Assembly: GCA_034432445.1 (NCBI GenBank)
Contig: DAOUBX010000094.1
Coordinates: forward strand, 1 to 62,661
Length of the DNA: 62,661 nt
Direction: 5' to 3'
Origin: Anaerolineales bacterium
Lineage (GTDB): Bacteria; Chloroflexota; Anaerolineae; JAAEKA01
The position numbers were made by a program, and so were the translations under genes. The notes under the pieces were generated by a model, which was not told the origin of the DNA, searched no databases, and saw only the letters and a program-made list of their open reading frames with translations. Each line of letters starts with the position of its first letter. Positions within the stretch are counted from its first letter, which is position 1. Of the stretch, positions 337 to 49,025 are shown piece by piece.

Positions 337-938
337 CCTTTCGGTCACGCCAAGGGGATTTCCTGGCCGATTACTACCGCTGTTTCTCAGGCCAAAGCAC
401 CCAGACCTTCCGCAAACTGTACGGGTACAAGAAGCTGCTGGCGTGGCAGGCGGCGGATGAGTTAGCGCTGGCGGTGCATGACATGGTGATCGAGTTTCCT
501 TTCACCTACGCCGATCTGCGCAGCCAGATGCTCAAGTCGGCCGGGTCAGCGCCGGACAACATCGCCGAGGGCTATTGCCGCAACGCCTTGGGCGACTACA
601 TCCGCTTCTGCGAGATCGCCCGCGGCTCCTTGGGAGAGCTGGGCAGCCAAATCCAGCGCTGCGAACGGTGGCGTCTGATTGAAGGCGAACCCTTGGCGCG
701 GCTTCTTGACCTTTACAGCGATGCCACGTATCATCTGGAACAGCTCATCAAGAGCCTGCGCGCCAAACGCCAAGAAGGCGCCTGGGACCGCAGCCTCGGC
801 GTCCGCGAAGCTCCGGTCTCCTACGACGTACACTCCCTTGATCTTCCATTCGAACTCCCGGAGGACTTCTCACATCCCGATGACCCTGGCGACGACCAAG
901 TTCCTCCCACTTCCTCCGAGTTCCCCCAGTTCCCCTAG
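329..938 (+). CDS. Four helix bundle protein (TIGR02436 / 23S rRNA IVS-type, Avd-like), with a frame discontinuity near the start
   Basis: YGYKKLLAWQAADELA (420-467), SQMLKSAGSAPDNIAEGY and IARGSLGELGSQ are family motifs. The SD GGAGGAG (317-323) and ATG329 are one base out of frame with the domain. Confidence 0.8.
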
Positions 939-953
939 TTCCTCCCAATTCCC
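899..953. repeat. Degenerate 9-10-bp tandem array (AGTTCCYCC)
   Basis: agttcctccc acttcctccg agttccccc agttcccct agttcctccc aattccc; spans TAG 936-938 and ends at the SD AGGAG. Confidence 0.85.
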
Positions 954-964
954 AGGAGCTTCCC

Positions 965-2164
965 ATGCCATCCATCTACACCCAAGCCGTCCACGCCGGC
1001 GAGCGGCAGCCTGCGCCGCGCGAAGTGTCCGTCACCACACCGATCTACCACGCCGTGGGCTATCTGGAGCCGTCGGCCGCGGCCATGGAGGCGGTGTTTG
1101 CCGGCGAGCAGGCCGGCTACGTCTACCGCCGCTACGAAAGCCCCACGGTGGACGCCTTCGAGCGCGCCGTGGCCACGCTGGAAGGGGGCGAGGCGGCCTT
1201 CGCCACCGCGTCGGGCATGGCCGCGGTGCACGCCGCGCTGCTGGCGGCCGGCGTGCGCAACGGCAGCGCCGTGGTCGCCGCCCAAGACTGCTACGGCGCC
1301 ACCTACAGCCTGCTCAGCACGCTGATGGCCGAGCAGGGCGTGGCCGTCCATTTCGTGGACGTGACCGACCTGGCCCAGGTGCAGGCCACGCTGGCCGAGC
1401 GCCGGCCGGCCGCGCTGCTGGTGGAGACCATCTCCAACCCGCTGCTGAAGCTGGCTGACATCGCCGCGCTGGCTGAGCTGGCCCACGCGGCCGGCGCGGC
1501 CCTGATCGTGGACAGCACCTTCGCCACGCCCTACCTGTGCCGGCCGCTGGCTCTGGGCGCGGATTATGTCGTGCACTCGGCCAGCAAGTACATCGGCGGC
1601 CACGGCGACGTGCTGGCCGGCGTGGTGGTAACGTCCAACGCCAACCGGCAGCGGCTGTTCATGCTGGAGAAGCTGATCGGCGCGGTATTGGCGCCGGAGG
1701 TGGCGTGGCTGGCCCTGCGCGGGCTGAAGACGCTGCCGCTGCGCATGGAGCGCCACTGCGCTAACGCCCTGGCCGTGGCCGCGTGGCTGGCCCAACACCC
1801 GGCCGTGGCGCGCGTGCACTACCCTGGCCTGCCCGGCCACCCGCAGCACGAGTTGGCGCAGCGCCTGCTGGGCGGCCGCGGCTTTGGCGGTATGGTCGCC
1901 TTCGAGCTGCGCGATAGGACGCAACCTGCCGCCTTCCGCTTCCTGGACGCGCTCAAACTGGTCCTCCCTGCCACCACCCTGGGGGACGTGTACTCGCTGG
2001 CCCTCTACCCCGTCATGGCCAGCCACCGCGCTGTGCCGCCGGCCGAGCGCGCCCGCCTAGGCATCACAGACGGCCTGCTGCGCCTGAGCATCGGCATCGA
2101 GGACGTGGCCGACATCATCGCCGACCTGGCGCAAGCGCTGGAGACGGTAACACGTGATCGGTGA
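965..2164 (+). CDS. PLP-dependent trans-sulfuration enzyme (cystathionine gamma-synthase / methionine gamma-lyase family)
   Basis: YRRYESPT, ASGMAA, VETISNP, HSASKYIGGHGD (PLP lysine), LLRLSIGIED. Confidence 0.92.
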   Translation: MPSIYTQAVHAGERQPAPREVSVTTPIYHAVGYLEPSAAAMEAVFAGEQAGYVYRRYESPTVDAFERAVATLEGGEAAFATASGMAAVHAALLAAGVRNGSAVVAAQDCYGATYSLLSTLMAEQGVAVHFVDVTDLAQVQATLAERRPAALLVETISNPLLKLADIAALAELAHAAGAALIVDSTFATPYLCRPLALGADYVVHSASKYIGGHGDVLAGVVVTSNANRQRLFMLEKLIGAVLAPEVAWLALRGLKTLPLRMERHCANALAVAAWLAQHPAVARVHYPGLPGHPQHELAQRLLGGRGFGGMVAFELRDRTQPAAFRFLDALKLVLPATTLGDVYSLALYPVMASHRAVPPAERARLGITDGLLRLSIGIEDVADIIADLAQALETVTRDR

Positions 2165-2240
2165 CCCGTGATCGGTGATCGGTAACCAGTCCGTTCACCG
2201 TTCACCGTTCACCGTTCACCGTTCACCGTCCCCGTTCACC
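2154..2240. repeat. Heptamer arrays in inverted arrangement (GTGATCG-like units, then GTTCACC x6)
   Basis: Five perfect GTTCACC at 2193-2227 plus one at 2234-2240, facing GTGATCG-like units at 2154-2188. Overlaps both convergent stop codons. Confidence 0.9.
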
Positions 2241-3514
2241 CTCCCCATGATCCACAAGATCAGCGCGGCGATGCCGGCCGCGATGCTGGTGGAGAGAATG
2301 GCCAGGTTGTAGTTGTCGCCGCCCCGGTCGATGAACCAGCCGTTGACCACCGGGCTGAGGATCGAGGCTAGGGTGGTGGTGGCGTAGAACAGGCCGACTG
2401 CGCTGGCCGCGTGGCCGGGGGTGGACATGCTGAGCAGCGCAGGTAGGGCGTTGCTGTTGACCAGCGCCCAGGCCACCCCGCCCAGCGGCATGATGGCCAG
2501 GGTCACCGACACCGAGCGCACCACGAAGGCCAACGACACCAGCACGGCTAGGCCCACCAGCCCAACTATCATCGTCCGCCGGCGGCCCAAGCGCTCTCCC
2601 ACCATGCCGGCCGGCACCGAAGCCAGGATGTACGACAGGAAGAACACCCCCAGGATCAGCAGCGCCGTGTCTTCCGGCAAGGCCAACACGTTGCGGCCAT
2701 AGAGGGTAAAGAAGGTCTCCACCGCGTTGATGCCAAAGGTGTAAAAGAGGATGGCCAACAGCAGCAGCGGCACCCCGCGCCAGTTGTCGGCCAGGACGTC
2801 TTGCAACATGCGCAGGGAATTGGTGGGGGGCGCTGCGCCGCCGTCGTCAGCCTGCACCGTGTAGCGCCGGCGCAGCCAGGGCATGGCCGCGCTCAGCAGC
2901 GCGGTGGTCGTCAGCAACAACAGCGCCGCCACTGCAAAAGGCCCGGCGCGGTTGATACGATAAAGCCAGCCCAGCCCCACCGTGGCGATCAGAATGCCCA
3001 CGCCGCCCAGCACGTTGATGATGCCGTTGGCGGTGCTGCGGCGGTCGACCGGCGTCAGGTCGGGCAGCAAGGCGAACAAGGGCACGCGGATGACCGCCAT
3101 GGCGGCCAGCATGATCATCACCACGCCGATGAAGCTGGCCAGCCCGTTGAAGTACCGACCCACCAGGGGGATCAGCGCAAATCCGGCTGCGGCAAACGGC
3201 GCCCCCACCACGATGAAAGGCAGCCGCTGGCCCCAGCGGCTGCGCAGCCGGTCGCTGCGCGCGCCGATCCACGGCTGAATGAGCAGCGCCAGCAGGTTGT
3301 CCAGCATCATCACGACGCCGATGGCTGCGGCGCGCAGGCCAAAGTCCACCTGCAAGAGCACCGGCACGTAGGCGCCGTACAGCGTCCACATGGTGGTGAT
3401 AGCCATGTAACTCAAGCCGATGAAGATGGCCGGCGCGTAGTAAGCCTGGATCGCTGCGATAGCTGCGCGCCCGTGGGCCAGGGGGGAGAATTGGCGGGTG
3501 GTGGTTGGGGACAT
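2216..3514 (-). CDS. MFS transporter (maltose/sucrose GPH-like subgroup)
   Basis: About 12 hydrophobic helices; GARSDRLRSRWGQRLPFI and GERLGRRR MFS loop motifs. Confidence 0.88.
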   Translation of the reverse strand: MSPTTTRQFSPLAHGRAAIAAIQAYYAPAIFIGLSYMAITTMWTLYGAYVPVLLQVDFGLRAAAIGVVMMLDNLLALLIQPWIGARSDRLRSRWGQRLPFIVVGAPFAAAGFALIPLVGRYFNGLASFIGVVMIMLAAMAVIRVPLFALLPDLTPVDRRSTANGIINVLGGVGILIATVGLGWLYRINRAGPFAVAALLLLTTTALLSAAMPWLRRRYTVQADDGGAAPPTNSLRMLQDVLADNWRGVPLLLLAILFYTFGINAVETFFTLYGRNVLALPEDTALLILGVFFLSYILASVPAGMVGERLGRRRTMIVGLVGLAVLVSLAFVVRSVSVTLAIMPLGGVAWALVNSNALPALLSMSTPGHAASAVGLFYATTTLASILSPVVNGWFIDRGGDNYNLAILSTSIAAGIAALILWIMGRVNGDGER

Positions 3515-3695
3515 GATCGGCTCGGCGCGAGTGTATCATGTTGCACGGCCCATGACAAAACCCCTCGCCCCCCACAACGATACGGCCCCGGGTGGACCAT
3601 CATTCGGTTGACATGCCATCGGCCTGTCAGCGGCGGCCCCCGGGGGACACCCGCGCCTGCGCCGTCGCAGGGGCCAGGGTCGAACCCACCGGCTT

Positions 3696-3735
3696 AAAAA
3701 CAGCGCCGGACGCCTCCGGAGGCGTCCGGCTTTTT
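3696..3735. terminator. Intrinsic terminator hairpin, probably ending the cytochrome operon
   Basis: GCCGGACGCC-TCCGGA-GGCGTCCGGC with A and T runs on its flanks. Confidence 0.6.
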
Positions 3736-3921
3736 GGCGCACCAACAAGCCCCGTTCACGGGGCGCCGTTTGCCAGCCGAGGGTCTTCAGCCCGCGGCGC
3801 TGGCCGCCGGCGCGCGCCTCACATGTGCAACTCGATTACCCGGCTGTTTTGTCGATCTCCAACCAGCGTAACACCCGTCCCGGCGTCGTGCATTCGGTTG
3901 GTAGCCGGACGCACCTACGTG

Positions 3922-9538: not shown

Positions 9539-10378
9539 ATGAAGCTTGCTGTACTCGCTGATATACACGCCAACCTGCCTGCGCTGCACGCCGTGCTGGA
9601 GAGCATCGACGCCTGGGGCCCTGACATGGTCGTCGTAGCCGGCGACATCGTCAACCGCGGCCCGCGACCGGCCGAGTGTCTGCGCATCATCCAGGAGCGG
9701 CAGCAGCAGGCCGGCTGGCTCACAGTGGTGGGCAACCACGAGGAGTACGTGCTGCACCAAGCCAGTCCCCAGGCTGCCCGCAGCGGCCCGCAATTCCACA
9801 TCTTCCAAAGCTCTTACTGGACTTATAGACAGCTCAACGGCGATCTATCGGCGCTGGAGGCGATGCCCTTCCAGCAAAGCCTGACCGCCCCCGACGGCAG
9901 CGAAGTGCGCATCGCCCACGCCTCGATGCGCGGCACGCGCGACGGCATCTTCCCTGAGACGCCTGATGACGTGCTACGGCTGCAGGTGGGCCGGCCCTAC
10001 ACGCCGCTCTTCGTCGTTGGGCACACCCACTGGCCGCTGATTCGGCACCTGGACGGCACGCTGGTGGTCAACGCGGGCGCGGTAGGCATGCCTTTCGACG
10101 GCGACCCGCGCGCCAGCTATGCTCAGTTGACGTGGCGGCAGGGTCAGTGGCATGCTGAGATCATCAGACTCGACTACGACCGCCGCCAAACCGAGCAGGA
10201 TTATGTGAACACCGGCTTCTTGGAACACGGCGGCGCGCTAGCGCGCTTGATGCTTGTGGAGCTGCAAAAAGCGCGGTCGCAGCTCTACCAATGGGCGCTG
10301 ACCTACGAAGCGCCGGTGCTGGCCGGCCAGCTAACCATCGAGGAAGCGGTGGATCGTTTTCTTGCCAACTGCGCCTGA
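9539..10378 (+). CDS. Metallophosphoesterase (YfcE-like)
   Basis: ADIHAN, AGDIV, VGNHE, IAHAS, VGHTH, NAGAVG. Confidence 0.88.
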   Translation: MKLAVLADIHANLPALHAVLESIDAWGPDMVVVAGDIVNRGPRPAECLRIIQERQQQAGWLTVVGNHEEYVLHQASPQAARSGPQFHIFQSSYWTYRQLNGDLSALEAMPFQQSLTAPDGSEVRIAHASMRGTRDGIFPETPDDVLRLQVGRPYTPLFVVGHTHWPLIRHLDGTLVVNAGAVGMPFDGDPRASYAQLTWRQGQWHAEIIRLDYDRRQTEQDYVNTGFLEHGGALARLMLVELQKARSQLYQWALTYEAPVLAGQLTIEEAVDRFLANCA

Positions 10379-10434: not shown

Positions 10435-10821
10435 ATGGACGACGACGCTCCCCACCTAGCTCCGTACAGCCGCCACATCTTCATCTGCACAGGCGAATAC
10501 AGCGAACACTGTGATCCTGAACAGCAGGCCCGCCGCCTGGAGATCTATCTCAACAAACACCTCGGCGCGCTGGGAGACTACCTGAACCCTCAACGGGTCA
10601 AAGTCAGCCTGGCGCCCTGTCTGGGAGTGTGCATGCAAGGGCCGATTCTGGTGGTCTATCCTGAGGGCGTCTGGTATCATCACGTAGACGAAGCGCTGAT
10701 CGACCGCATTGTGGCAGAGCATCTGCGCGGCCAACAGCCGGTGGTCAGCCACGTCTTCCACGTCCTAGACCGCACGAGTGGACCGAAATCGCTGGACAAC
10801 GGTGGACAAGAGGCGGCCTAG
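10435..10821 (+). CDS. Thioredoxin-like [2Fe-2S] ferredoxin
   Basis: [13 protein letters not shown]...[21 protein letters not shown]. Confidence 0.88.
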
Positions 10822-14108: not shown

Positions 14109-14675
14109 TTACTGCGGCTTGTCGACGATTACCCAGGCGCTCAGCTCGCCATTTTGCTGCACACCGGCGCTGAACCCATGCGCGGACACCATGGCCGCAA
14201 TCTCGTCGACGGCGTAGAAACGACTACCCATCAATGCCGCCTTCTCAGCCCAGGCAATGAGCTTGACACGAAAAAAGGTGATGTCGGGTTCCTCGATCAC
14301 CAGCCGTCCGCCTGGCTTGAGCACACGTAGCAGCTCGCCAACCGCTTGGCGCTGGTCGGCAAAGTGATGCAGCGCATCCACTACCAACACGCGGTCAAAG
14401 TGGCCGCTGGGAAAAGGCAAGCGCTCCACATGCGCCTGTACCGGGCAGGCCACTCCTTTACCCTTGGCCTGCTCCAACATCGGCTCCGACAGATCACTGA
14501 TTACCAGCCGGCCGACCCAAGATCGCAACCCGGATGAGACCCGGCCCGTGCCCCCGCCGGCATCCAACAGCCAGCCGGCGGTGGGCAAGCGCAGCGCTGC
14601 TGCCAGGCGCTCAAGGGCCGGCGACGGGATCACCCGATCATAGAACGGCGCCACTAGGTCGAAGTGCAGGTTCAT
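14109..14675 (-). CDS. Class I SAM-dependent methyltransferase
   Basis: LLDAGGGTG, ERLPF, FDRV, LKPGGRLVI. Start placed at MNLHFD. Confidence 0.88.
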   Translation of the reverse strand: MNLHFDLVAPFYDRVIPSPALERLAAALRLPTAGWLLDAGGGTGRVSSGLRSWVGRLVISDLSEPMLEQAKGKGVACPVQAHVERLPFPSGHFDRVLVVDALHHFADQRQAVGELLRVLKPGGRLVIEEPDITFFRVKLIAWAEKAALMGSRFYAVDEIAAMVSAHGFSAGVQQNGELSAWVIVDKPQ

Positions 14676-19523: not shown

Positions 19524-20753
19524 ATGTACATTTTTAAGGCAGGCGTTGTCGGCGCCGGGTTCATGGGCGCCGAGATCGCCCAGGTCATCAGCTTCAGCGG
19601 CTTGCCGGTGGTGGTCAAGGACATCGACCCTGCCATGCTGCAGAAGGCCGAGGATCACATTCGCGCCATTTACCAGGGCCGCGTCGACAAGGGCAAGATG
19701 ACCGCGGGCGAGCTGCGCGACAAAATGGACTTGATCGAGTTCACCCTGGATTACGACTCATTCGCCGACGCTGACTTCATCATCGAGGCCGTGCCGGAGC
19801 GCATGGATTTGAAGGTCAAGGTCTTCCAAGAACTGGCCAAGGTGGCGCCGGAGACAGCCATCTTCGCCTCCAACACCTCGGCCCTTAGCATTTCGGAGAT
19901 GGGCTTCAAAGGCGGCCGGCCGGAGCGCACGATCGGCATGCACTTCTTCAGCCCGGCCCACGTGATGAAGCTGGTAGAGGTCATTCCCGGCCTGGACACA
20001 GCGCAAGATGTGATCGACGATACCGTACAGTTCACCGAAAGCTTGCGCAAGATCGCCGTCGTCGTCAAGGAGTGCCCCGGCTTCCTGGTCAACCGCCTGC
20101 TGGCGCCTTACTTAGGTGAGGCCATGATGGCGCTGCAAGAGGGCGCAGCCACAGCGAGCGAGATCGACGAGGCCATGGTCGACTTCGGCATGCCGATGGG
20201 GCCGTTCACCTTGCTCGATTTCATGGGCATCGACGTTAGCGCGCATGCCGGCGCGTACATGGCCAGCGAATACGGCCCACGCTTCGAGTCGCCCGAGATC
20301 CTCAAGCGCCTGGTAGCAGCCGGCCGCTACGGCGAGAAAACCGGCGCCGGCTTCTACGGCTATGGCGAGCAAACTGACGCCCCCGTCAAGCAGATGATCG
20401 CCGAGATCCAGGCCAGCGGCATTCCCAAGGGCCCCTTCACCGTCGAGCGCTTGATCTTCCCCATGATCAACGAAGCGGCCCTAATTGCGCAGGAGAACAT
20501 TGCCTCCATCCCCGACATCGACATGGCGATGATCGCCGGCACCGGCATGACCTACAAAGGCGAACGCATGGGCCCGCTGGCCATTGCCGACGAGTACGGC
20601 CTGGACGTGGTGCTGGCCGGCCTGGAGCAGATGCTGCATGAGCCGTGGGGCGGTGAGCGCTTCCGCCCCTCGCTGCTACTCAAGACCAAGGTGCGCGCCG
20701 GCCATCTCGGCAAGAAGACGGGCCGCGGGTTCCATGAGCACATGGCATGGTAG
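19524..20753 (+). CDS. 3-hydroxyacyl-CoA dehydrogenase (duplicated C-terminal domain)
   Basis: GVVGAGFMG, IEAVPE, SNTS, GMHFFSP, PMGP and MGPL, GKKTGRGF. Confidence 0.93.
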   Translation: MYIFKAGVVGAGFMGAEIAQVISFSGLPVVVKDIDPAMLQKAEDHIRAIYQGRVDKGKMTAGELRDKMDLIEFTLDYDSFADADFIIEAVPERMDLKVKVFQELAKVAPETAIFASNTSALSISEMGFKGGRPERTIGMHFFSPAHVMKLVEVIPGLDTAQDVIDDTVQFTESLRKIAVVVKECPGFLVNRLLAPYLGEAMMALQEGAATASEIDEAMVDFGMPMGPFTLLDFMGIDVSAHAGAYMASEYGPRFESPEILKRLVAAGRYGEKTGAGFYGYGEQTDAPVKQMIAEIQASGIPKGPFTVERLIFPMINEAALIAQENIASIPDIDMAMIAGTGMTYKGERMGPLAIADEYGLDVVLAGLEQMLHEPWGGERFRPSLLLKTKVRAGHLGKKTGRGFHEHMAW

Positions 20754-20847
20754 ATCGGTAATTGGTAGATCGGTTAAGTGGTAAATGGGTGGTCGCGCGA
20801 CCAACTGACCACTTGACCAATCTACCAACCTACCACTTTACCAATTC
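20749..20847. repeat. Octamer arrays in inverted arrangement (GGTAnATn / nACCAnTn)
   Basis: ggtagatc ggtaatt ggtagatc ggttaagt ggtaaatg ... gaccactt gaccaatc taccaacc taccactt taccaatt. The first unit contains TAG 20751-20753. Confidence 0.85.
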
Positions 20848-20958
20848 GTAACTGCTCAGGTGCCGGGTATTTGTAGGCGATTTGCGATCTAGGTTGGCTT
20901 CTCAGACACGTTTGCAAACCAGAATCCACATGCCCGGCACCTATGGCTGAGTAGTTAC
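20848..20958. mobile_element. 111-bp MITE
   Basis: TIRs GTAACTGCTCAG / CTGAGTAGTTAC and subterminal GTGCCGGG / CCCGGCAC, with a perfect 8-bp direct repeat ACCAATTC at 20840-20847 and 20959-20966. Confidence 0.85.
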
Positions 20959-21793: not shown

Positions 21794-21864
21794 GGTGATC
21801 GGTGGGCAGCTGGCACTACCCACTTTCCACCGATCACCGACCACCGGTGACCGATCACCACCCC
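21794..21864. repeat. Heptamer array (GGTGATC / ACCGATC)
   Basis: ggtgatcggtg ... accgatc accgacc accggtg accgatc acc, ending at the SD AAGGAGG. Confidence 0.75.
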
Positions 21865-21876: not shown

Positions 21877-23016
21877 ATGAATTTTGCCTTCACCGAAGAG
21901 CAAGAGATGTTTCGCGAGATGTTCGCCGGCTTCGTCGCCAAGGAAGTTGAGCCACAGGCGGAGCATATCGCTGAATACGAAGAAGTGCCCATGAGCTTGC
22001 TCAAGAAGGCCGCCATGCAGGGTTTCCTGGGCGCGCTGCTGCCGGAAGAGTACGGCGGCGCCGCGCTTGACCCGGTGAGCTACATCCTGCTGCTGGAAGA
22101 AGTCGCCAAGGCCTGCATGAGCACCGCCATGACCTTGCACATCCACAACAGCCTGGTTAGCCAAGCCATTCTGCTCTGGGGCACCGACGAGCAGAAAGAG
22201 CAATGGCTGCCAGCCATGGCTGAAGGCAGCGTCATCGGCGCCTGGGCCTTTGCTGAGCCCGATGCCATCTCGCTGCATTCCACGCAGACCAAGGCCACGG
22301 CCTACGACGATGGTTACACCCTGCATGGCACCAAAGCCTGGGTGTCGAACGCGGGCATCGCCGGGCTTTACGTGATCTTCGCCGTGGCACCCGAAGGGCC
22401 GACGGCCTTTCTGGTGCCGGCTGACGCCCAGGGGCTGAAGCTGGGCAACCGCGACAAAACCCTGGGCATGCGCGGGGTGCAGATCCATCCGGTCTATCTC
22501 AACGACGTGGTCGTTCCTGCCAGCGGCGTGTTGGGCGAGCCGGGCGGCGCACAGGCAGTGCTAGATGCCGTCACGGACTTCTCGCGCCTCTCTATGGCCG
22601 CGATTGCGCTGGGCGGCGCGCACCATGCCCTGGAGCTAGGCGTCAAGTTCGCCATTGACCGCAAACAGTTCGGCGTGGAAATCGCGCGCAAAGGCGCCAT
22701 TCAGGCCTATATCGCCGATTCGGCGCTGGAGGTAGAGACGCTACGCAGCCAGATCTACCGCTGCGCTTCGCTGGCCGAACAAGGCAAACTAGACCGGGAG
22801 GCGGCCGCAATCGCCAAGCTGTGGGCCAACCGCGTCGCCTATCAGGTCGGCAACCGCATGATCCAGACCCACGGCGGCTACGGCTACATCCTGGACTACG
22901 CCATCGGCCGCGTCTTCCGCGACTGCCGCACTGTCGAGGGCATCGAAGGGACCAACCGCTCGCAACAGACGGCTATCGCCCGCAGCGTGCTGGCGGCACA
23001 TGGGTTTGCAATGTGA
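21877..23016 (+). CDS. Acyl-CoA dehydrogenase (divergent copy)
   Basis: PEEYGG, KAWVSNAG, RKQFG, IQTHGGYGY, EGTN. The first FAD motif is degenerate (FAEPDAIS). Confidence 0.88.
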   Translation: MNFAFTEEQEMFREMFAGFVAKEVEPQAEHIAEYEEVPMSLLKKAAMQGFLGALLPEEYGGAALDPVSYILLLEEVAKACMSTAMTLHIHNSLVSQAILLWGTDEQKEQWLPAMAEGSVIGAWAFAEPDAISLHSTQTKATAYDDGYTLHGTKAWVSNAGIAGLYVIFAVAPEGPTAFLVPADAQGLKLGNRDKTLGMRGVQIHPVYLNDVVVPASGVLGEPGGAQAVLDAVTDFSRLSMAAIALGGAHHALELGVKFAIDRKQFGVEIARKGAIQAYIADSALEVETLRSQIYRCASLAEQGKLDREAAAIAKLWANRVAYQVGNRMIQTHGGYGYILDYAIGRVFRDCRTVEGIEGTNRSQQTAIARSVLAAHGFAM

Positions 23017-23100
23017 CGCGTAACGCGTAACGAAGTCATGGTGCGCCGTTCGCAGGCGAGCGGAGCTCGTCACAAAGGACTGGTTACGGGTTACGGTTCG
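23013..23100. repeat. Heptamer arrays in inverted arrangement (GTAACGC / GGTTACG)
   Basis: gtgacgc gtaacgc gtaacga ... ggttacg ggttacg. The first unit contains TGA 23014-23016. Confidence 0.7.
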
Positions 23101-30338: not shown

Positions 30339-30434
30339 AAACGCTGCGCCTAGCAACTGGGTACATTGTTAAGCCGTTAAGCCCTGGAACGCGTGCCCGG
30401 TGACCGACCAGCCGGGCACGTGCTGTTTATCTCC

Positions 30435-35160: not shown

Positions 35161-35207
35161 CGGTGCAGTTGCGCAGGTTCCCTGCGTCGGAGAAAGCCAT
35201 CATAGCG

Positions 35208-35466
35208 CAGCGACGTTGATGGAGCCGAGTAGGCTGGTGCGCCGATAGCAGAGAGTTGCCGGACGGTGCAAGGCAACCGGACCCCAGCTGAACAGCCCTC
35301 CTGAGTCCTTGGCCGGAACGGCATCCTTCCAAGTATGGTCGAGCGCTTGGCCCCCGTTAGCGGGCCTGGGTCAACCATGACCCCTGAGGCTGTGTCCGCG
35401 AGGGCGCGGCGAAACCAGGTGGCACCACGAGAGCGCCCCTCGTCCTGGTAGGCGGGGGGCGCTTTG
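35208..35466 (+). promoter_or_regulatory. T-box riboswitch
   Basis: AGUA (35227-35230), AGAGA and GGUGCAA stem-I motifs, T-box AGGTGGCACCACG (35417-35429), then an AGCGCCCC...GGGGCGCT-TTG terminator upstream of serS. Confidence 0.9.
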
Positions 35467-35548
35467 ATTCAGCGCCACAATGCCGGCGCATGACATGACA
35501 AGCACAACGAACCCTGCTTCACCGCAGAGCCATTTGGAGGCGACTGAC

Positions 35549-36829
35549 ATGCTCGACATCAAGTTCATCCGCGAGAATCCCGAATTTGTCAAACAGCAGA
35601 TGCAGGCGCTGCAAGACCCCAATGCGCCTGTCGACCGCACGCTGGCGCTCGACGAGGAGCGACGCAACTTGCTCATGCGTGTGGAAGAGCTGAAGGCGCA
35701 GCGCAACGCCGAGAGCAAGCGCATCGGCCAGCTCATGCGCGAGCAGAAGCTCGCCGAGGTCGAGACGTTGAAAGAGGCCATGGCCCGCGTCGGCGACGAG
35801 ATCAAAGCACTGGACGAGCGCCTGAAAGTGGTCGACGCAGAGCTGTTCGACGCCATGAGCCGTATCCCCAACCTGCCGCTGCCCAACGTGCCAGTGGGCA
35901 AAGACGACAGCGAGAACGTCGTCGTGCGCACGTGGGGTCAGCCGCGCGCCTTCGTCTTTGAGCCACTGCCGCATTGGGACCTGGGCGAGGCGCTAGACAT
36001 CATCGACTTCGAGCGCGGGGTTAAGCTCTCCGGCAGCCGCTTCTACGTGCTGAAAGGATTGGGTGCGCGGCTGCAACGCGCGCTGATCCAGTGGATGCTC
36101 GACGTGCACATCAACGAACACGGCTACACCGAGGTGTATCCTCCTTTCCTCGTGCGGGAGGCCTGTCTCTTCGGCACCGGCAACCTACCCAAGTTCGGCG
36201 AGAATCTCTACCGCGACATCGAGGACGACCTGTGGCTGATTCCAACGGCTGAGGTGCCGGTCACCAACCTCTACCGCGACGAGATCATCCCGCCGGGCAA
36301 GCTGCCGATCTACCACGTGGCCTACACGCCCTGCTTCCGCCGCGAGAAGATGTCGGCCGGCAAGGATGTGCGCGGCATCAAGCGCGGGCATCAGTTCGAC
36401 AAGGTGGAGATGGTCAAGTTCGTCGAACCAGAGCAAGGCGAAGCTGAGCTGGCCAAGCTGATCGCCGACGCCGAAGACATCTGCCGTCGGCTGGAAATCC
36501 CGTACCGTGTGGTGCAAATGTGCACCGGCGACCTGGCTTTCTCTGCAGCAGCCAAGTTCGACCTGGAAATGTGGGCTCCCGGCTGTCAGGAGTGGCTGGA
36601 GGTCAGCTCCTGTTCCTTGTTCACCGACTTCCAAGCGCGGCGCGCCAACATCCGCTACCGCCCCGCTGAAGGCGCCAAGCCCCGTTACGTCTACACCATC
36701 AACGGCTCCGGGCTGGCCCTGCCGCGCGTCGTCATCGCCATCTTGGAGAACTACCAACAGATCGATGGCAGTGTGGTCGTACCGGACGTGTTGCGGTCAT
36801 ACATGGGCGGCGTCGCCGTGATCAGGTAG
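35549..36829 (+). CDS. serS: Serine--tRNA ligase
   Basis: MLDIKFIRENP, LIPTAEVP, FRREK, GHQFDKVE, EVSSCS, TINGSGLA. Confidence 0.98.
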   Translation: MLDIKFIRENPEFVKQQMQALQDPNAPVDRTLALDEERRNLLMRVEELKAQRNAESKRIGQLMREQKLAEVETLKEAMARVGDEIKALDERLKVVDAELFDAMSRIPNLPLPNVPVGKDDSENVVVRTWGQPRAFVFEPLPHWDLGEALDIIDFERGVKLSGSRFYVLKGLGARLQRALIQWMLDVHINEHGYTEVYPPFLVREACLFGTGNLPKFGENLYRDIEDDLWLIPTAEVPVTNLYRDEIIPPGKLPIYHVAYTPCFRREKMSAGKDVRGIKRGHQFDKVEMVKFVEPEQGEAELAKLIADAEDICRRLEIPYRVVQMCTGDLAFSAAAKFDLEMWAPGCQEWLEVSSCSLFTDFQARRANIRYRPAEGAKPRYVYTINGSGLALPRVVIAILENYQQIDGSVVVPDVLRSYMGGVAVIR

Positions 36830-40377: not shown

Positions 40378-40647
40378 GGCCGTGCACCCCTCGTCGAACT
40401 GCGACCCCCGGCTTACCGAACCAGTAGGCTCCAGCCAGGCTACCCCGTGGCACCCACAGGTGACCGCTTATGGCTGCTACCTCCCGGTCCTGACCAGGTT
40501 CACGGGCCTGCGCCGCACAGGACCCAGCTCTCGACGCCACTTAGCCCGGCAGTCACAAAGATCGTCGAGCCCTTGGAGTGGGAATTCAGCCCCGCTATAG
40601 CGGATTGCGGGTACAAGGCACCGCTAGCGCCCCGCTTAGCACGACCA
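40378..40647 (-). ncRNA. ffs: Large (Alu-containing) signal recognition particle RNA
   Basis: Helix-8 motif TCAGGACCGGGAGGTAGCAGC. Complementary ends GGTCGTGC / GCACGGCC about 270 nt apart, with own promoter and terminator. Confidence 0.93.
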
Positions 40648-40752: not shown

Positions 40753-40842
40753 TGGCGGAGAGGGTGGGATTTGAACCCACGATCCCCGGAGGGATACGCG
40801 CTCTCCAGGCGCGCGCACTAGACCGGACTATGCGACCTCTCC
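40753..40842 (-). tRNA. tRNA-Ser(GGA)
   Basis: 90 nt; anticodon arm CGCGC-CTGGAGA-GCGCG, long variable arm, GGTTCAAATCC, encoded CCA. Confidence 0.97.
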
Positions 40843-40909: not shown

Positions 40910-41160
40910 GTAACTGCTCAGCCCGGTGAACGGAACACCTGCACTTGCATCGCAGGTGCAAGTGTTCACCGCGTCTGACAGCACGACACCTGCGCCTGCG
41001 CCGACGAAGCCTTAAGAAGCGAAGCGCCTGGTGGGCCGCAGGCGAGGTGCAGGTGAGCGGCCACAGCCGCTGGGAACACGCTCCGCCAGGCTCTGCGGGG
41101 CCTTCGTACTGTCAGCCGGGGATTTCCAATCCTTGGATAGGGGTACGCCTGAGCAGTTAC
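40910..41160. mobile_element. 251-bp MITE of the same TIR family
   Basis: Perfect TIRs GTAACTGCTCAG / CTGAGCAGTTAC. Flanks ACCGTTTG and ACTGTTTG match at 7 of 8. Hairpin-rich interior. Confidence 0.78.
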
Positions 41161-41343: not shown

Positions 41344-41433
41344 TGGCGGAGAGGGTGGGATTTGAACCCACGAGGGCGTAAACCCTACGCGTTTTCGAGA
41401 CGCGCGCACTCGGCCAAACTATGCGACCTCTCC
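41344..41433 (-). tRNA. tRNA-Ser(CGA)
   Basis: 90 nt; anticodon arm CGCGT-CTCGAAA-ACGCG, long variable arm, encoded CCA. Confidence 0.97.
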
Positions 41434-41445: not shown

Positions 41446-41474
41446 ATTATACATGACCACGATGTGACGGGCAA
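41446..41474 (-). promoter_or_regulatory. tRNA-Ser(CGA) promoter
   Basis: TTGCCC-N17-TATAAT. Confidence 0.75.
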
Positions 41475-41703
41475 ATCGCCGCGTTTCATCAGGCGCAGCG
41501 CCGGCTGGGCCGACGCAGCGAGCGACACGGCAAGTTGCCTGACCCACCAGCTTGCAGTGCGCATCGCGGCTCGCCGCTTGGCTCAGCGAAGCAAACATGA
41601 GCTAGATCATGTCGCAAAATGCCGCGCTGCGTTACAATGCATTACAGCGAAGTTGAGACGACGTGCGCCATGAGAGGCAAAAAAGCACCATTAAGGAGAA
41701 GCA

Positions 41704-43257: not shown

Positions 43258-43288
43258 CCGGGCTACCCTTGCTGCGGGAGAAACGCCG

Positions 43289-43651: not shown

Positions 43652-43702
43652 GCGCAGCTTGTGGACGAGCGTGAACGAAACTAGAACAGAATCGAGACCA
43701 CC

Positions 43703-44182: not shown

Positions 44183-44241
44183 CGTTATCCTGCTGCGGTT
44201 TCCCGCCACCTTGGCGTTGCTGGGAAGCCCGGACCAAGCCC

Positions 44242-45363
44242 ATGAACACAGATCTCATCTCCCTGCTTACCCAGGGTTTCCAGGCTTTGAGCGTTGGCAA
44301 CGTGGTAATGATGGCCGCCGGCGGCGTGTTGATCTTCCTTGCCATCGCCAAAAACTATGAACCGGTGTTGCTGATCCCTATCGGCGCCGCCGCCATTATC
44401 GCCAACATTCCCCTCACCGGCATGACGGAAGAAGATGGCCTCTTCGGCATCCTCTATGCAGCCGGCATCGCCACCGAGCTCTTCCCCCTGTTGATCTTCA
44501 TCGGCATCGGCGCCATGACCGACTTCGGGCCGCTGCTGGAAAACCCCAAGATGGTTCTGCTGGGCGCGGCCGGCCAGTTCGGCATCTTTGGTACCCTGCT
44601 GGTAGCCTTGGCGCTGGGCTTTACCCTGAACGAGGCCGCATCGATCGGCATCATCGGCGCTGTCGACGGACCGACATCGATCTACGTCTCTAGCCAGCTT
44701 GCGCCGCACCTGCTGGCGCCCATAGCCGTGGCTGCCTACAGCTATATGAGCCTGGTGCCGATCATCCAGCCGCCCATCATGCGCGCCATGACCACCCGCA
44801 AGGAGCGCCGAGTGCGCATGCCCTACACGGCGAGGCCCGTGAGCAAGCCGACGCGCATCCTGTTTCCGATCGCCGTCACGCTCGCCACCGGCCTGTTGGT
44901 GCCCATGGCCACGCCGCTGATCGGCATGCTGATGTTCGGCAATCTGCTGCGCGAGTCTGGGGTGGTGGAGCGGCTGGTGGACGCGGCCAGCAACGAGATC
45001 GCCAACGTCACCACGATCTTCCTCGGCCTTGCCATTGGCTCGACCATGGTAGCCGAAAGCTTCTTGCGGCTCGACACCCTGCTGATCTTGGTGCTGGGCA
45101 TTGTGGCGTTCGCCCTGGACACGGCGGCAGGCTTGCTGTTCGGCAAGTTTCTTTACCTGGTCACGCGCGGCAAGTTCAACCCGTTGATTGGAGCAGCCGG
45201 CATCTCCGCCTTCCCCATGGCAGCGCGGGTCGTGCAGCGCATTGGCCAGGAGGAGGACTTCGACAATTTCCTGCTGATGCACGCTATGGGTGCCAACACG
45301 GCAGGCCAGATCGCATCGGCGCTGGCCGGCGGCATTGTCCTGGCACTCTTGGCCGGCGGCTGA
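44242..45363 (+). CDS. Na+-translocating decarboxylase beta subunit (OadB/MmdB)
   Basis: YEPVLLIPIG, GAMTDFGPLL, IGIIGAVDGPTSI, AAYSYMSLVPIIQPP, ISAFPMAARV, HAMGANTAG. Confidence 0.95.
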   Translation: MNTDLISLLTQGFQALSVGNVVMMAAGGVLIFLAIAKNYEPVLLIPIGAAAIIANIPLTGMTEEDGLFGILYAAGIATELFPLLIFIGIGAMTDFGPLLENPKMVLLGAAGQFGIFGTLLVALALGFTLNEAASIGIIGAVDGPTSIYVSSQLAPHLLAPIAVAAYSYMSLVPIIQPPIMRAMTTRKERRVRMPYTARPVSKPTRILFPIAVTLATGLLVPMATPLIGMLMFGNLLRESGVVERLVDAASNEIANVTTIFLGLAIGSTMVAESFLRLDTLLILVLGIVAFALDTAAGLLFGKFLYLVTRGKFNPLIGAAGISAFPMAARVVQRIGQEEDFDNFLLMHAMGANTAGQIASALAGGIVLALLAGG

Positions 45364-45605
45364 CGGACCACGTCTCATCACGCTCTCAGCCGGTCGACCT
45401 TGCATCGAGCACGGGCGAGTCTGGCGCAATCGCCAGGGCCGTGGTAGAATGGCGCCAGCCAGGCAACCTCCAACATGACGACCGCCCAGCCGCCGGAGAG
45501 CACTCAGCGCGACGCCAGCGCCCGGCGTCTGGGTCAGAGCACTGAGGCTTATGCCGGCTGCTGTCATCTCCCTCTGACTGCGGTATCCGCGCAACGGTGC
45601 TTGCC

Positions 45606-46535
45606 ATGCCCACCATCGCTTCCTCTTTGCGCTCGCTCTCCATCAGCAGCTACATCGCTCCCATTCTCACACAGCCCAACCTGACAGCCAAGGTGGAGAC
45701 CGTGTTTGCCGAGGTGGTCAACCTGCTGGTGGAGCCGAGCGTCTACGTCGCACTGGTCAGCGAGCACATCGGCAACGGCCCTCTCAATGTTGTGGTCGAG
45801 CCGGCCGCGCTGCTGGCAGTCCTGCGGCCCGGCGACCAAATCACCGGCGATGGACATCGGCTGCAGCTGGGCCGCGGGTGGGAGCTGGACGTGGCTACCG
45901 CGACCGTTTGGGACACCTGCCCGTCCTACAACCAGCTCAGCCGGCGGCCCCAAGTCGTGCGTAGCAACCTAGAGCGCCTGCGCACAGGGCTGCCGCTCGA
46001 AGCGCCGCCGGCCAGTCTGGCGGCTGCACCTGCTTATCACACGCAAGGCGCCTTTGGCAGCCGACCGGCGATCGCGCTGGTACAATCGCAAGCGTGGGAG
46101 CTCACCGATGGCCTGCGCCGCGCCTACCGCACCGGCAACCTGCAATGGATCCGCGTCTTTGCCCGTCGCCTGGCCGGCCTTGGCCCTGGGTTGACGCCGG
46201 CCGGGGACGACTGGCTGGCCGGCTGGCTGGTCGGTTTGCGCGCCCGTCAGGCGCTCGACTTGGACGAGGATGAACCCTTGCTGGCCGTAGAGGCGGTAGG
46301 CGAAGCCGTAATCGCCGCAGCAGAGGGACACACCACCGACCTGAGCCTAGCTTTCCTACGCGCGGCGGCGGTCGGCGCCACCCCCCAGGCCTGGCACGAT
46401 CTGATCACCAGCCTGACCGACGCCGACCCGATGACGTTGCGCACGGCAACCGCTGAGGTGCTGCGCTTTGGCGCCACCTCGGGCGCCGACATGCTGGCGG
46501 GCTTTTTGGCCGCGCTGGCAGACGACACCGTTTAG
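45606..46535 (+). CDS. DUF2877 protein (YlbF/AllH/YahE-like)
   Basis: LAGLGPGLTPAGDDWLAG, TTDLS, FGATSGADMLAG. Confidence 0.88.
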   Translation: MPTIASSLRSLSISSYIAPILTQPNLTAKVETVFAEVVNLLVEPSVYVALVSEHIGNGPLNVVVEPAALLAVLRPGDQITGDGHRLQLGRGWELDVATATVWDTCPSYNQLSRRPQVVRSNLERLRTGLPLEAPPASLAAAPAYHTQGAFGSRPAIALVQSQAWELTDGLRRAYRTGNLQWIRVFARRLAGLGPGLTPAGDDWLAGWLVGLRARQALDLDEDEPLLAVEAVGEAVIAAAEGHTTDLSLAFLRAAAVGATPQAWHDLITSLTDADPMTLRTATAEVLRFGATSGADMLAGFLAALADDTV

Positions 46536-46546
46536 GAGACAGCTCC

Positions 46547-48127
46547 ATGCCAATCGCCACTCGCATCCTCCCGTCTGCCTACTTCGACTCGATCACACTG
46601 ATGCTGGCCGCCAAAGACCTGTTGGCCATGCCGGGGGTGCAAGACGCGGCCCTTGTGATGGGCACTCCGGCCAACCTGGGGCTGATGCGCGATGCCGGCT
46701 TGTTGACCGACGCCGCCGCAGAAGCCACGCCCAACGACTTGGTGGTCGCAGTGTTGGCCGCGGATGAAGCCACGGCTGCCGCCGCAGCGTCCGCCGTAGA
46801 CGCGATCTTGGCCAGCCACAAGCAGAGCCCAGCGGTTTCCGGCGGCCAACCAAGGCCTCGTTCGTTGCGCGCGGCGTTGCGCCAGGCGCCCGACGCCAAC
46901 CTGGCGATGATCTCCGTGGCCGGTCGCTACGCGGCGCGCGAGGCGCGGTGGGCGCTGGAACACGGTCTGCACGTCATGCTCTTTAGCGACAACGTCAGCC
47001 TGGAGGATGAAATCGCGCTCAAAGCTTTGGCAGAGCAACGCGGCCTGCTATGCATGGGGCCTGACGCCGGCACAGCGATCATCAACGGCATCGGTCTAGG
47101 CTTCGCCAACGCCGTACCGCGTGGGCCCATCGGCATCGTCAGCGCGGCCGGTACCGGCCTGCAGTCGGTCAGCAGCGACATCGCGCGGCGCGGCAGCGGC
47201 GTGAGCCAGGCCATCGGCACGGGCGGCCGCGACCTGAGCGAGGCCGTGGGCGGCCGAGCAATGCTTGCGGGCCTGCAAGCGCTGCAAGCCGACCCGCACA
47301 CCGCGGTCATCGTCCTGATCTCCAAACCGCCGGCCGACCCAGTGGCTCACAAGCTCCTGGCGCAGGTGCGGGCCAGCCAGAAGCCCACGGTGGTCTGTTT
47401 CTTGGGCGCCGACCCTGGCATGATCGAGCGCGCCGGCGCCATCCCCGCCAGCACCTTGGAACAGGCGGCGGCCATTGCCGTGGCCCTGGCGCAAGGCGGC
47501 GATTGGTGCGGCGCCATCGTGGCCTGCGATGAAGCCCCACTGGCCTACCTGCCGCCAGCGCAGGCGGAACAGGCGAAGCTTCAGCCTGGCCAGCGCTTCA
47601 TTCGTGGCCTCTTTGCAGGCGGCACGTTCTGCTACGAAGCGCAGCTCGTCGCTGAAGGGCTGCCTGACCCCGTCTACTCGAACGCGCCGATCACGAAGGC
47701 TGTGGCCAGCCACCAACCACCGCCGGACGCCGTCGTCCACGGCCAGCATGTGTTCCTCGACCTGGGCGCGGACGAGTACACGGTGGGCCGGTTGCATCCC
47801 ATGCTCGATCCCACGCTGCGCAACCGCATGATCCTTCAGGCCGCAGATGACCCCGAAGTCGCCGTGCTGCTGCTGGATGTTGTGCTCGGCTACGGCGCGC
47901 ACCCAGACCCGGCCGGAGAGGCGGCACAAGCGATACAAGCTGCGCGCGCCCGCGCCGCTGCTGCCGGCCGCTATCTGCCGGTGGTCACCTTCGTTTGCGG
48001 CACCGAGAACGATCCCCAACGGCTAAGCCAGCAGGAAGCTAAGCTCAAAGCAGCCGGCGCGCTGGTCACGGCCAGCAACGCGCAAGCGACGCGCGTGGCG
48101 TCGTTGATCCTGGCCGGCCATGCCTAA
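46547..48127 (+). CDS. fdrA: FdrA/AllF/YahF acyl-CoA synthetase-like protein
   Basis: YFDSITLM, MGTPAN, ISVAGRYA, MLFSDNV, MGPDAGT, GTGGRDL, GLFAGGTFC, GRLHPM, DVVLGYG. Confidence 0.92.
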   Translation: MPIATRILPSAYFDSITLMLAAKDLLAMPGVQDAALVMGTPANLGLMRDAGLLTDAAAEATPNDLVVAVLAADEATAAAAASAVDAILASHKQSPAVSGGQPRPRSLRAALRQAPDANLAMISVAGRYAAREARWALEHGLHVMLFSDNVSLEDEIALKALAEQRGLLCMGPDAGTAIINGIGLGFANAVPRGPIGIVSAAGTGLQSVSSDIARRGSGVSQAIGTGGRDLSEAVGGRAMLAGLQALQADPHTAVIVLISKPPADPVAHKLLAQVRASQKPTVVCFLGADPGMIERAGAIPASTLEQAAAIAVALAQGGDWCGAIVACDEAPLAYLPPAQAEQAKLQPGQRFIRGLFAGGTFCYEAQLVAEGLPDPVYSNAPITKAVASHQPPPDAVVHGQHVFLDLGADEYTVGRLHPMLDPTLRNRMILQAADDPEVAVLLLDVVLGYGAHPDPAGEAAQAIQAARARAAAAGRYLPVVTFVCGTENDPQRLSQQEAKLKAAGALVTASNAQATRVASLILAGHA

Positions 48128-48147
48128 TTGGCGAATGCACCCACCTC

Positions 48148-48957
48148 ATGACCTCACAGACCGCCTCGTCACCCCTCGACCGCAGCGCACTCGTCACGCT
48201 GCGACCCATCACTGCAGACAACCTGCGTGACGTGCTGCGCCTGCAAGTTGCGCCGGCGCAACAGCACTTTGTCGCGCCCAACGCTGTCTCCCTGGCCGAG
48301 GCGCACTTCAACCAATACGCCTGGTACCGCGCCATCTACGCCGACGAGACGCCTGTTGGCTTTGTCATGCTTTATGACAATCCCGTCAAGCCCGAGTACT
48401 TCCTCTGGCGGCTGATGGTCGACGCACGCTACCAGGGCAACGGCTTTGCCCGGCGGGCCGTGCAGTTGCTCATCGACTACGTGCGGACACGGCCCGGCGC
48501 AACCGAGCTGCTGGTCAGCCACGGCGAGGGGGAGGGCAACCCTGGTCCCTTCTACGTCTTCCTCGGCTTCACGTACACCGGCGACAAACTCGGCGACGAG
48601 TTAGTGATGCGTTTGCCGTTACAAACGGCTGCCCAGCCTCCGCCGCCAGCGCCGCAAGCCAAACCGCTGACGCACGTGGTGCTCTTCAAGCTCAAGGACC
48701 GCAGCCCACAAGCGGTGGCAAAGACTGCTGAGGTGCTGCGCAGCATGGAAGGCAAGATCGCGCCGCTGCACGCCCTCGAGATCGGCCTCAACGTCGTCCC
48801 CTCCCCGCGCGCTTACGATATCGCCTTGATCACCCGCTTTGCCAGCCTAGCCGACATGGAGCTCTATCAGGTGCACCCCATCCACCAGGGCGTGCTGGCC
48901 CACATGCGCGAGGTGATGGAGGCCGCCGTAGCGGTAGATTTCGAGAGTGACCACTAG
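48148..48957 (+). CDS. GNAT acetyltransferase (polyamine acetyltransferase-like) fused to a Dabb stress-responsive barrel
   Basis: RLMVDARYQGNGFAR acetyl-CoA motif, Pro linker, then HVVLFKLK...DIALITRF...YQVHPIHQ. Confidence 0.82.
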   Translation: MTSQTASSPLDRSALVTLRPITADNLRDVLRLQVAPAQQHFVAPNAVSLAEAHFNQYAWYRAIYADETPVGFVMLYDNPVKPEYFLWRLMVDARYQGNGFARRAVQLLIDYVRTRPGATELLVSHGEGEGNPGPFYVFLGFTYTGDKLGDELVMRLPLQTAAQPPPPAPQAKPLTHVVLFKLKDRSPQAVAKTAEVLRSMEGKIAPLHALEIGLNVVPSPRAYDIALITRFASLADMELYQVHPIHQGVLAHMREVMEAAVAVDFESDH

Positions 48958-48966
48958 AGACGCGAT

Positions 48967-49025
48967 CCGGTCACCCAACCACCGATCACCGGTTACCGAT
49001 GACTGCTCACCGATCACCGAACACC
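48967..49025. repeat. Heptamer array (ACCGATC-like x8)
   Basis: ccggtca cccaacc accgatc accggtt accgatg actgctc accgatc accgaac, ending at the SD AGGAG. Confidence 0.8.

Follow-up and report, generated by a model that had tools for sequence, protein, structure and literature searches.

The stretch analyzed here, hereafter the window, comprises 62,661 nucleotides (nt) from an Anaerolineales bacterium of the phylum Chloroflexota (GenBank assembly GCA_034432445.1, contig DAOUBX010000094.1). It carries six arrays of 7- to 10-nt tandem units, all six at gene boundaries; one trails a gene for a four-helix-bundle (4HB) protein of the PF05635/TIGR02436 (S23p) family, and three lie within one beta-oxidation operon of the order thiolase-HADH-ECH-ACAD-ACAD-ETFb-ETFa (ECH, enoyl-CoA hydratase; junctions are written as gene>next gene). 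An earlier sequence-only reading had proposed the six arrays, the operon and the 4HB gene ahead of array 1, and each of these proposals was borne out. More specifically, Tandem Repeats Finder (TRF) reported repeats at all six places; at period 7, 8 or 10, at least 3 copies and a score of at least 38, the window holds 6 array regions, compared with a mean of 0.05 in 40 dinucleotide-preserving shuffles, and domain assignment agreed with the gene identities given for the flanks. The 4HB gene and the arrays are as follows (SD, Shine-Dalgarno sequence; PLP, pyridoxal phosphate; MFS, major facilitator superfamily).

Reading frame ~363-938, plus strand: 4HB gene (PF05635/TIGR02436), 170-amino acid (aa) Anaerolineae subfamily.
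899-953, plus strand: array 1, single-armed, unit AGTTCCYCC(C) (TRF period 10/19, 5.6 copies of AGTTCCTCCC); the stop codon of the 4HB gene (TAG, 936-938) lies inside a unit, and the array ends at the SD (AGGAG, 955-959) of a Cys/Met PLP enzyme gene.
2154-2240, no strand: array 2, an imperfect hairpin between convergent genes (Cys/Met PLP enzyme and MFS transporter), with 4.3 copies of GTGATCG (TRF, 2154-2183) and 7.3 copies of CCGTTCA (2191-2240); a TGA (2162-2164) and the minus-strand MFS stop codon (2216-2218) both lie inside it.
20749-20847, plus strand: array 3, HADH>ECH junction (TRF 20748-20845, period 8/15/24), a hairpin of 41 pairs and an empty loop, its two arms being of the TGGTAGAT / ATCTACCA family; it starts in the last codon and stop of HADH, the TAG (20751-20753) being inside a unit.
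21794-21864, plus strand: array 4, ECH>ACAD1 junction, a GGTGATC / GATCACC hairpin with additional 3' units (TRF part 21828-21859, 4.6 copies of CACCGAT), ending at the SD AAGGAGG (~21866).
23013-23100, plus strand: array 5, ACAD1>ACAD2 junction, arms of two CGCGTAA and two GGTTACG units around a 49-nt loop (TRF parts 23016-23032, ACGCGTA, and 23082-23096, GGTTACG, ~2 copies each); a TGA (23014-23016) lies in the first unit.
48967-49025, plus strand: array 6, single-armed, between a GNAT-Dabb gene and an AllG-like gene, ~8 heptamers NNNNCAC of the CGATCAC type (TRF, 6.6 copies of CACCGAT), ending at the SD CAGGAG (~49026).

Finer claims of the sequence-only reading could likewise be verified. 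Direct reading of the sequence placed a stop codon within a repeat unit in four arrays (1, 2, 3, and 5), three arrays (1, 4, and 6) end at the next SD, and GGTGAWC / GWTCACC units are shared by those at 2154, 21794, and 48967. The idea that facing arms form long periodic hairpins held for four of the six: RNA folds of the arrays at 2150, 20748, 21777, and 23011 gave long hairpins with minimum free energies (MFE) of -39 to -49 kcal/mol, none of 200 shuffles being as good (z-scores of -5.8, -7.6, -4.2, and -3.1 for arrays 2 to 5, respectively). The single-armed arrays at 899 and 48967 had z-scores of ~0 (+0.2 for array 6, which forms no hairpin). The loops of arrays 2 to 5 are empty, and only array 1 adjoins a 4HB gene. 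As arrays they are of a known kind, namely intergenic heptameric simple sequence repeat (SSR) arrays, i.e., runs of at least three ~7-nt tandem units near start or stop codons, inverted pairs being common; none of those in the window matched an Rfam family at gathering thresholds. Genes were called by a simple GC3 criterion. Of 79 array regions, 70 lay between co-directional genes, compared with 81% of all junctions, and 5 lay at divergent junctions versus 8.7 expected, which is no clear depletion. Two minimal two-copy 8-mers (30368-30383, GTTAAGCC; 55082-55097, CGAGATGA) may represent such arrays at an early stage or in decay; each stands ~5 to 10 nt 5' of the putative start codon that follows.

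The 4HB gene ahead of array 1 belongs to a subfamily of ~170 to 180 residues that is tightly conserved in Anaerolineae and has the tail WDRSLGV..Y...LPDDFP. Its product (474-938) scored 57.6 bits against Pfam (cut-off 33.8) and 65.5 bits against TIGR02436 (cut-off 24), and the subfamily profile (alignment with 15 homologues) matched PDB entry 2gsc (XCC0516) with an E value of 6.5e-15. The ATG of the orthologues is replaced in the window gene (LA-DYYRCF versus M-DYYRSF, aligning with GCC/CTG); the first canonical start in the frame is the GTG at 474, whereby helix 1 is removed, and the last ~13 codons are the translation of array 1. Three loci with orthologues (L082 to L084; L numbers denote collected loci) are syntenic, in the order 4HB > Cys/Met enzyme >< MFS > cytochromes, and have the AGTTCCYCC array 3' of the 4HB gene as well (~30 units in L082), together with a complete hairpin and SD 5' of it that are lost in the window. 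Array 1 forms the 3' arm of a cassette, the gene of which persists at 363-938. In L082, ~30 AGTTCCCCC units in the same orientation stand on either side of the orthologous gene (9694-9991 and 10536-10803), with a short GAGGAACTnn arm further 5' of the upstream array, over which a probably spurious 231-aa minus-strand gene is called. In L083 (8029-8150) and L084 (3043-3200), the array 3' of the 4HB gene is interrupted by a small palindromic insert (TAGTAGACGATGGCGTAAGTTCG...CTTACGCCCGACTGTACTAG); compared with L083, L084 has an additional internal duplication of 45 nt. PADLOC gave no defense-system match for this subfamily or for the 151-aa subfamily described below.

An ECH scan, with one genome taken per species, placed the window in Caldilineales (class Anaerolineae) and yielded the relatives used for comparing the beta-oxidation operon: the closest (L002) is a Caldilineales metagenome-assembled genome with 94% ECH amino-acid identity, and 11 further relatives have 77 to 80%. 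The operon order is kept in all 12, and two-armed periodic hairpins occupy thiolase>HADH, HADH>ECH, ECH>ACAD1, and ACAD1>ACAD2 in nearly all of them. Their layout is arm 1 at or including the stop codon, a short loop, and a complementary arm 2 running up to the AGGAG of the next gene; in most of them, the 5' end of the stem falls within -3 to +3 nt of the stop codon. Units vary by species and junction (TTGGTAGA/TCTACCAA, CGTAAYG/CRTTACG, GGTGATC/GATCACC, AGACAAG/CTTGTCT, and additionally CAGTGAA/TTCACTG, GGTGGAG/CTCCACC, GCAAGTT/GCAACGT), copies per arm range from 2 to >12, and MFE z-scores reach -19.5, yet the arms remain complementary. Thus, structure and position recur, whereas sequence does not. 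Hairpins orthologous to array 3 are present in L003 to L012 and L020, the junctions orthologous to array 4 hold hairpins with other units, and the CGTAAY / RTTACG family recurs at the array 5 junction in L004 to L008 and L012. In more distant Anaerolineae (ECH identity of 55 to 61%), period-7/8 arrays occur at the same junctions, yet with other units. Arm orientation tracks transcription: the arm with the stop codon comes first, and at two junctions the G-skew changes from positive (arm 1) to negative (arm 2). Spacers of only 9 to 18 nt separate the genes at ACAD2>ETFb and ETFb>ETFa in almost every genome. In L020 alone, ETFb>ETFa (14 to 18 nt in most other relatives) holds a 135-nt TGATGAA / TTCATCA-type hairpin (14146-14286, z of -4.6), apparently a recent gain. 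The 837-nt ACAD1>ACAD2 spacer of L008 (4967-5809) consists of ~10 reiterated GCGTAAT / ATTACGC hairpin modules that share a conserved loop (CCCGGAGTGTGTGC...), so that entire hairpins are duplicated in tandem at a higher order.

Turnover was also visible between strains. Contigs from other samples (L156 to L158), 98.0% identical to the window over 3.9 kb, have array 1 unchanged and an array 2 with three fewer CCGTTCA units and one changed unit in the other arm, direct evidence that dynamics of the slippage type are at work. Because array 2 (2216-2240, minus strand) encodes the last codons of the MFS transporter, the C-terminal tail of this protein differs between these strains.

A metagenome scan with the 170-aa subfamily alignment yielded 37 loci. 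This subfamily goes with the unit GGGAACT / AGTTCCC in at least six gene contexts, which include histidine kinase > 4HB > response regulator, aldo-keto reductase > 4HB > metallophosphoesterase, and 4HB > Cys/Met enzyme, as well as a context with a conserved gene 3' of the 4HB gene (L096, L099 to L101, L103, and L104) and a separate one in L105 to L107. Nearly all of these loci read [GGGAACTnn(n)]n-SD-ORF-[nnAGTTCCC]n (ORF, open reading frame), the 3' arm often overlapping the last codons; in a more distant genome (L085 to L088), the 4HB gene lies in the loop between upstream GGGAACTnnn and downstream nnnAGTTCC arms. Among 26 nonredundant 4HB genes, arrays of period 8 to 10 were found no more than 80 nt upstream in 18, at or after the 3' end in 20, and on both sides in 16, the background in 4HB loci being 0.35 array regions per kb (~0.035 per 100 nt). 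For 21 of 34 4HB genes, none of 30 shuffles paired as well as the actual upstream and downstream flanks; the rank alone was used, as the absolute duplex energies look inflated. In 497 kb fetched independently of 4HB genes, GGAAC/GTTCC clusters occurred twice, once as array 1 itself.

The 151-aa subfamily first came to light in L026 and L027 through an iterative hidden Markov model (HMM) search of six-frame ORFs in all collected loci, which found no other 4HB gene beyond those fetched. In both, HADH>ECH of the beta-oxidation operon holds the gene, flanked by TGGTA(A/G)(G/A)TT just after the HADH stop and (C/A)YTACCA ending at the ECH SD, and these units are of the family found at the orthologous junction in the window (array 3, TGGTAGAT/ATCTACCA). 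A 151-aa 4HB gene occupies HADH>ECH in L026, L027, and L140 to L143, compared with an empty loop in the window and its clade; the window hairpin is a gene-less counterpart of the 4HB-bearing junction of other Anaerolineae. The subfamily has 1,413 matches, and all of the 120 matches listed are at least 69% identical to the query. It goes with TTGGTAGA / TCTACCAA in three contexts: sulfotransferase > 4HB > GFO/MocA, OTCase > 4HB > carbamate kinase, and HADH>ECH (in other samples), with flanks TTGGTAGA/TTGGGAAAC and TCTACCAA. More distant 4HB genes have inverted units of their own, namely AGTCGCG/CGCGACT (L121 and L123), GGTTCTC/AGAACC (L125), and GATACGT plus GTAACAC / GTTACTT plus CGTGTTA (L122), the last resembling array 5. 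A 4HB ORF lies in the loop of flanking arms in L026, L027, L085, L091, L096, L115, L126, L136, L140, L144, and L150, and 4HB subfamily and unit match in at least 10 gene contexts across two phyla. The family is very large (7,981 matches among 8,000 candidates scored).

The second phylum enters through Xanthomonas. Both Anaerolineae subfamilies match 2GSC, the S23p-type protein XCC0516 of Xanthomonas campestris, orthologues of which lie between accB and accC in X. campestris, a second Xanthomonas group (NCBI protein cluster 'MULTISPECIES: Xanthomonas'), Dyella, and Lysobacter. The layout there is the accB stop codon, ~4 GGGAATC-type heptamers, the 4HB gene, ~4 xATTCCC heptamers, and the accC ATG. 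Rehm et al. (2015; PMC4692102) published this heptamer as a genome-wide Xanthomonas repeat with ~185 loci per genome, 70 to 75 of them inverted pairs; the loci lie close to stop codons and 5' of ORFs, and most are transcribed. That article does not mention XCC0516 or link the repeats to it, and in the open-access literature we found no published link between PF05635, S23p or XCC0516 and heptamer repeats, so that one may exist elsewhere.

In operons, then, the element is two inverted runs of a 7- to 10-nt unit spanning from the stop codon to the next ribosome-binding site (RBS). Its full form appears to carry a PF05635 4HB gene (S23p/Avd-like) in the loop, and most copies, including five of the six in the window, are gene-less or single-armed derivatives. 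We favor, with moderate confidence, the explanation that the arrays are the arms of periodic-hairpin elements that resemble intervening sequences, are mostly gene-less, and sit at cistron boundaries, the 4HB gene being related to them as the RAYT transposase gene is to REPINs, the hairpins built of repetitive extragenic palindromic (REP) sequences. What carries this explanation was observed directly: the architecture, its recurrence at the same junctions with turnover of units and copy numbers, the physical link between 4HB gene and arms, and the match of subfamily to unit in two phyla. The sequence-only reading had suggested remnants of a mobile array/4HB cassette. Its cassette part is well supported, with 4HB genes of several subfamilies between subfamily-specific inverted arms and an empty HADH>ECH version; mobility would be a further step, and most 4HB genes seen are syntenic and look vertically inherited.

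The element would be transcribed with its operon, and the arms would pair into a long stem that loops out the insert, whether or not it contains a gene. Such pairing would put the upstream stop codon beside the downstream RBS, so that an insert of 100 to 800 nt could be tolerated between coupled cistrons. The stem may be a substrate of RNase III, by analogy with 23S rRNA intervening sequences that hold the same gene. Stop codons in arm-1 units whose period is not a multiple of 3 would close all three frames right after the gene, which would explain why arrays can abut or overwrite C-termini. Arrays would change by slippage and be spread or homogenized in trans. In the least secure step, the cognate 4HB protein would recognize its unit; the subfamily-unit match and the many gene-less copies per gene suggest as much, on the REPIN-RAYT analogy (PMC3116915).

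Several points weigh against this explanation. Pairing of the arms in RNA, RNase III cleavage, and coupling of the cistrons are all steps that we infer by analogy. 4HB proteins have, to our knowledge, no catalytic or sequence-specific nucleic-acid activity, and Warrier et al. (PMC4990558) consider the S23p protein of Coxiella probably not even translated. Three of the six window arrays, those with GGTGAWC units, have no identified 4HB partner, and no subfamily flanked by such units was found among the 4HB genes examined. Some 4HB genes have direct instead of inverted arrays (L082 and L092 to L094) or arrays on one side. The 4HB loci were gathered by homology, so that many are orthologues and not independent events. 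Lastly, arrays are largely absent from the closest relative L002, where ECH>ACAD1 measures 10 nt, and from L011; they are thus dispensable and turn over fast.

That absence also bears on the rival that survives best, albeit as an unlikely one, according to which the arrays are host cis-regulatory hairpins, comparable with REPs or bacterial interspersed mosaic elements (BIMEs), that stabilize upstream cistrons, segment the mRNA or tune translation of the next gene independently of any 4HB protein. That complementary arms recur at four particular junctions of a single operon among members of a family-level clade, that they span exactly from stop codon to SD, and that hairpin z-scores are strong is what this rival would lead one to expect. 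A conserved host function, such as the mRNA processing or stoichiometry control that the sequence-only reading also suggested, is nevertheless weakened by the lack of arrays in L002 and L011 and by copy numbers that differ between 98%-identical strains; unit families are replaced at the same junction, and 4HB genes in loops with subfamily-specific units are left unexplained.

Differences in unit number between strains, the range from 2 to ~30 units, and the 837-nt junction in L008 would suit neutral simple-sequence filler generated by replication slippage, with 4HB genes being small genes in permissive junctions; long heptameric SSRs are over-represented in some genomes, according to the two articles that cite Mrazek 2007 (PMC4692102 and PMC4679880). 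We judge this rival improbable, since slippage alone neither gives complementary arms nor keeps complementarity as units change. It also leaves unexplained both the subfamily-to-unit match and the near-exclusive occurrence of GGAAC clusters beside 170-aa 4HB genes.

Action at the DNA level, through cruciforms, G-quadruplexes (G4) or binding sites for nucleoid or replication proteins, is very improbable. The published GGGAATC (Xanthomonas) and GGGGAYT (Nostoc) repeats do fold into G4 in vitro (Rehm et al. 2015; PMC4692102), and long inverted arrays could extrude as cruciforms. The window units GTGATCG, GGTGATC, TGGTAGAT, CGCGTAA, and CACCGAT have no GGG run or G-tract and hence cannot form G4; moreover, array orientation tracks the direction of transcription, and array boundaries are translation signals. 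Intrinsic terminators or attenuators, for which the convergent setting of array 2 would be apt, and phase-variation (contingency) repeats, for which unit lengths that are not multiples of 3 would be apt, were rejected, as the stems lie inside a conserved operon just ahead of an SD and lead into CCCAAGGAGG, CAGGAG and similar sequences, then a start codon, with no U-tract, and the arrays lie outside both coding frames and promoters.

The preferred explanation, periodic-hairpin elements with an associated 4HB gene, admits a bolder form that we put forward only tentatively: PF05635 pentamers may be sequence-specific binders of their own 7- to 10-nt unit and, with the dispersed arrays, may make up a widespread, vertically persisting REPIN-RAYT-like system acting on transcripts at cistron boundaries and in rRNA, in Chloroflexota, Xanthomonadales, Coxiella/Leptospira, and probably cyanobacteria (short tandemly repeated repetitive [STRR] sequences) and Bacteroidota. 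If so, two orphan features, S23p proteins and prokaryotic heptamer repeats, would explain each other. The record of tandem heptamer arrays goes back to 1990 (STRR, long SSRs, GGGAATC in Xanthomonas, and TAACTGA in Beggiatoaceae) and that of S23p/TIGR02436 proteins over decades; we know of no function assigned to either. What appears to be new is the link between arrays and S23p/Avd-like genes, the gene-in-loop layout at junctions in mRNA, and the specificity of units for subfamilies. In two phyla, heptamer arrays and 4HB genes are connected by a physical and specific association, and both are tied to the architecture of rRNA intervening sequences. X. campestris, with the protein structure solved (2GSC), is a tractable organism for this system. 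For annotation, it matters that arrays lengthen or rewrite C-termini (the 4HB and MFS tails), create spurious ORFs, and break short-read assemblies.

The window holds other elements as well. A family resembling miniature inverted-repeat transposable elements (MITEs), with terminal inverted repeats GTAACTGCTCAG(GTGCCGGG), has copies at 20848-20958, 40910-41160, and 1-38, the last truncated where the window begins; in related strains, Logan contigs begin near window position 63, shortly beyond that copy. The 111-bp copy (20848-20958) directly follows array 3 in HADH>ECH as a separate insert, with ACCAATTC duplicated at its flanks; none of the 12 orthologous junctions has it. The 251-bp copy (40910-41160) lies between two tRNA-Ser genes (40753-40842 and 41344-41433, minus strand; anticodons GGA and CGA), which share one 1.4-kb noncoding stretch with a bacterial large signal recognition particle RNA (40380-40644, minus strand, 190 bits). 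A T-box leader (35207-35450, plus strand; Rfam RF00230, E value of 8.7e-20, its 87.3 bits falling slightly short of the gathering score of 93) directly precedes a seryl-tRNA synthetase gene (35480-36829).

Among known systems, the STRR heptamers of cyanobacteria, reportedly described by Mazel et al. in 1990, are like the window arrays tandem heptamers at gene junctions. The same holds for the TAACTGA repeats of Beggiatoaceae, cyanobacteria, and Bacteroidetes, which introduce a stop in every reading frame and directly border start codons (MacGregor 2015; PMC4679880). Some of these overlap the upstream stop and end a few nucleotides before the next start; in contrast to the elements here, they are almost always direct (1 inverted of 170), often lack an SD, and have no reported associated gene. 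The Rehm-type repeats share the dispersed intergenic heptamer arrays, the published ones being transcribed, and differ in their units, those of the window being unable to form G4. CRISPR arrays were rejected as a class, the units being head-to-tail with no spacers.

Avd of diversity-generating retroelements (PDB 4DWL), whose homology to PF05635/2GSC is noted in PMC10053308, has a homologous fold and is a pentameric four-helix bundle acting with nucleic acid. Unlike in those retroelements, no reverse-transcriptase Pfam family appeared in the neighborhood tables of the 4HB genes examined, nor was there a template/variable repeat pair near them. REPIN-RAYT systems (Bertels and Rainey 2011, PMC3116915; PMC3337134) likewise combine many hairpin-forming extragenic repeats with a single-copy gene flanked by them, a repeat class specific to the gene family, mostly vertical inheritance, and long persistence. 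RAYT, however, is a tyrosine (HUH) transposase of known chemistry, whereas the 4HB protein has no catalytic motif, and REPs are palindromes of 20 to 40 bp, whereas the elements here are tandem arrays. Membership in the REP/REPIN-RAYT class was rejected: in the loci analyzed, the units are contiguous and tandem, neither a GTAG nor a CGTC tag accompanies them, and what they flank is a PF05635 gene instead of one for a transposase.

The 23S rRNA intervening sequences of Leptospira and Coxiella are built on the same plan. In Coxiella, terminal inverted repeats pair into a 28-bp stem whose loop contains the S23p ORF, and two to three tandem GACAGAT heptamers, varying in number by strain, stand just 5' of the ORF; RNase III excises the intervening sequence (Warrier et al. 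2016; PMC4990558). They sit in helix 25 or 45 of the rRNA, whereas all copies here lie between protein-coding genes at intercistronic mRNA junctions, with no rRNA found by Rfam in the window; furthermore, the arms here are long tandem arrays, most copies have no ORF, and excision is proposed by analogy only. Common to both are flanking inverted repeats that form a stem (here from the folds and the flank pairing), a 4HB (S23p) ORF in its loop (here in relatives of the window element), variable-number tandem heptamers directly 5' of that ORF, and insertion into a transcribed region that leaves the host region intact.

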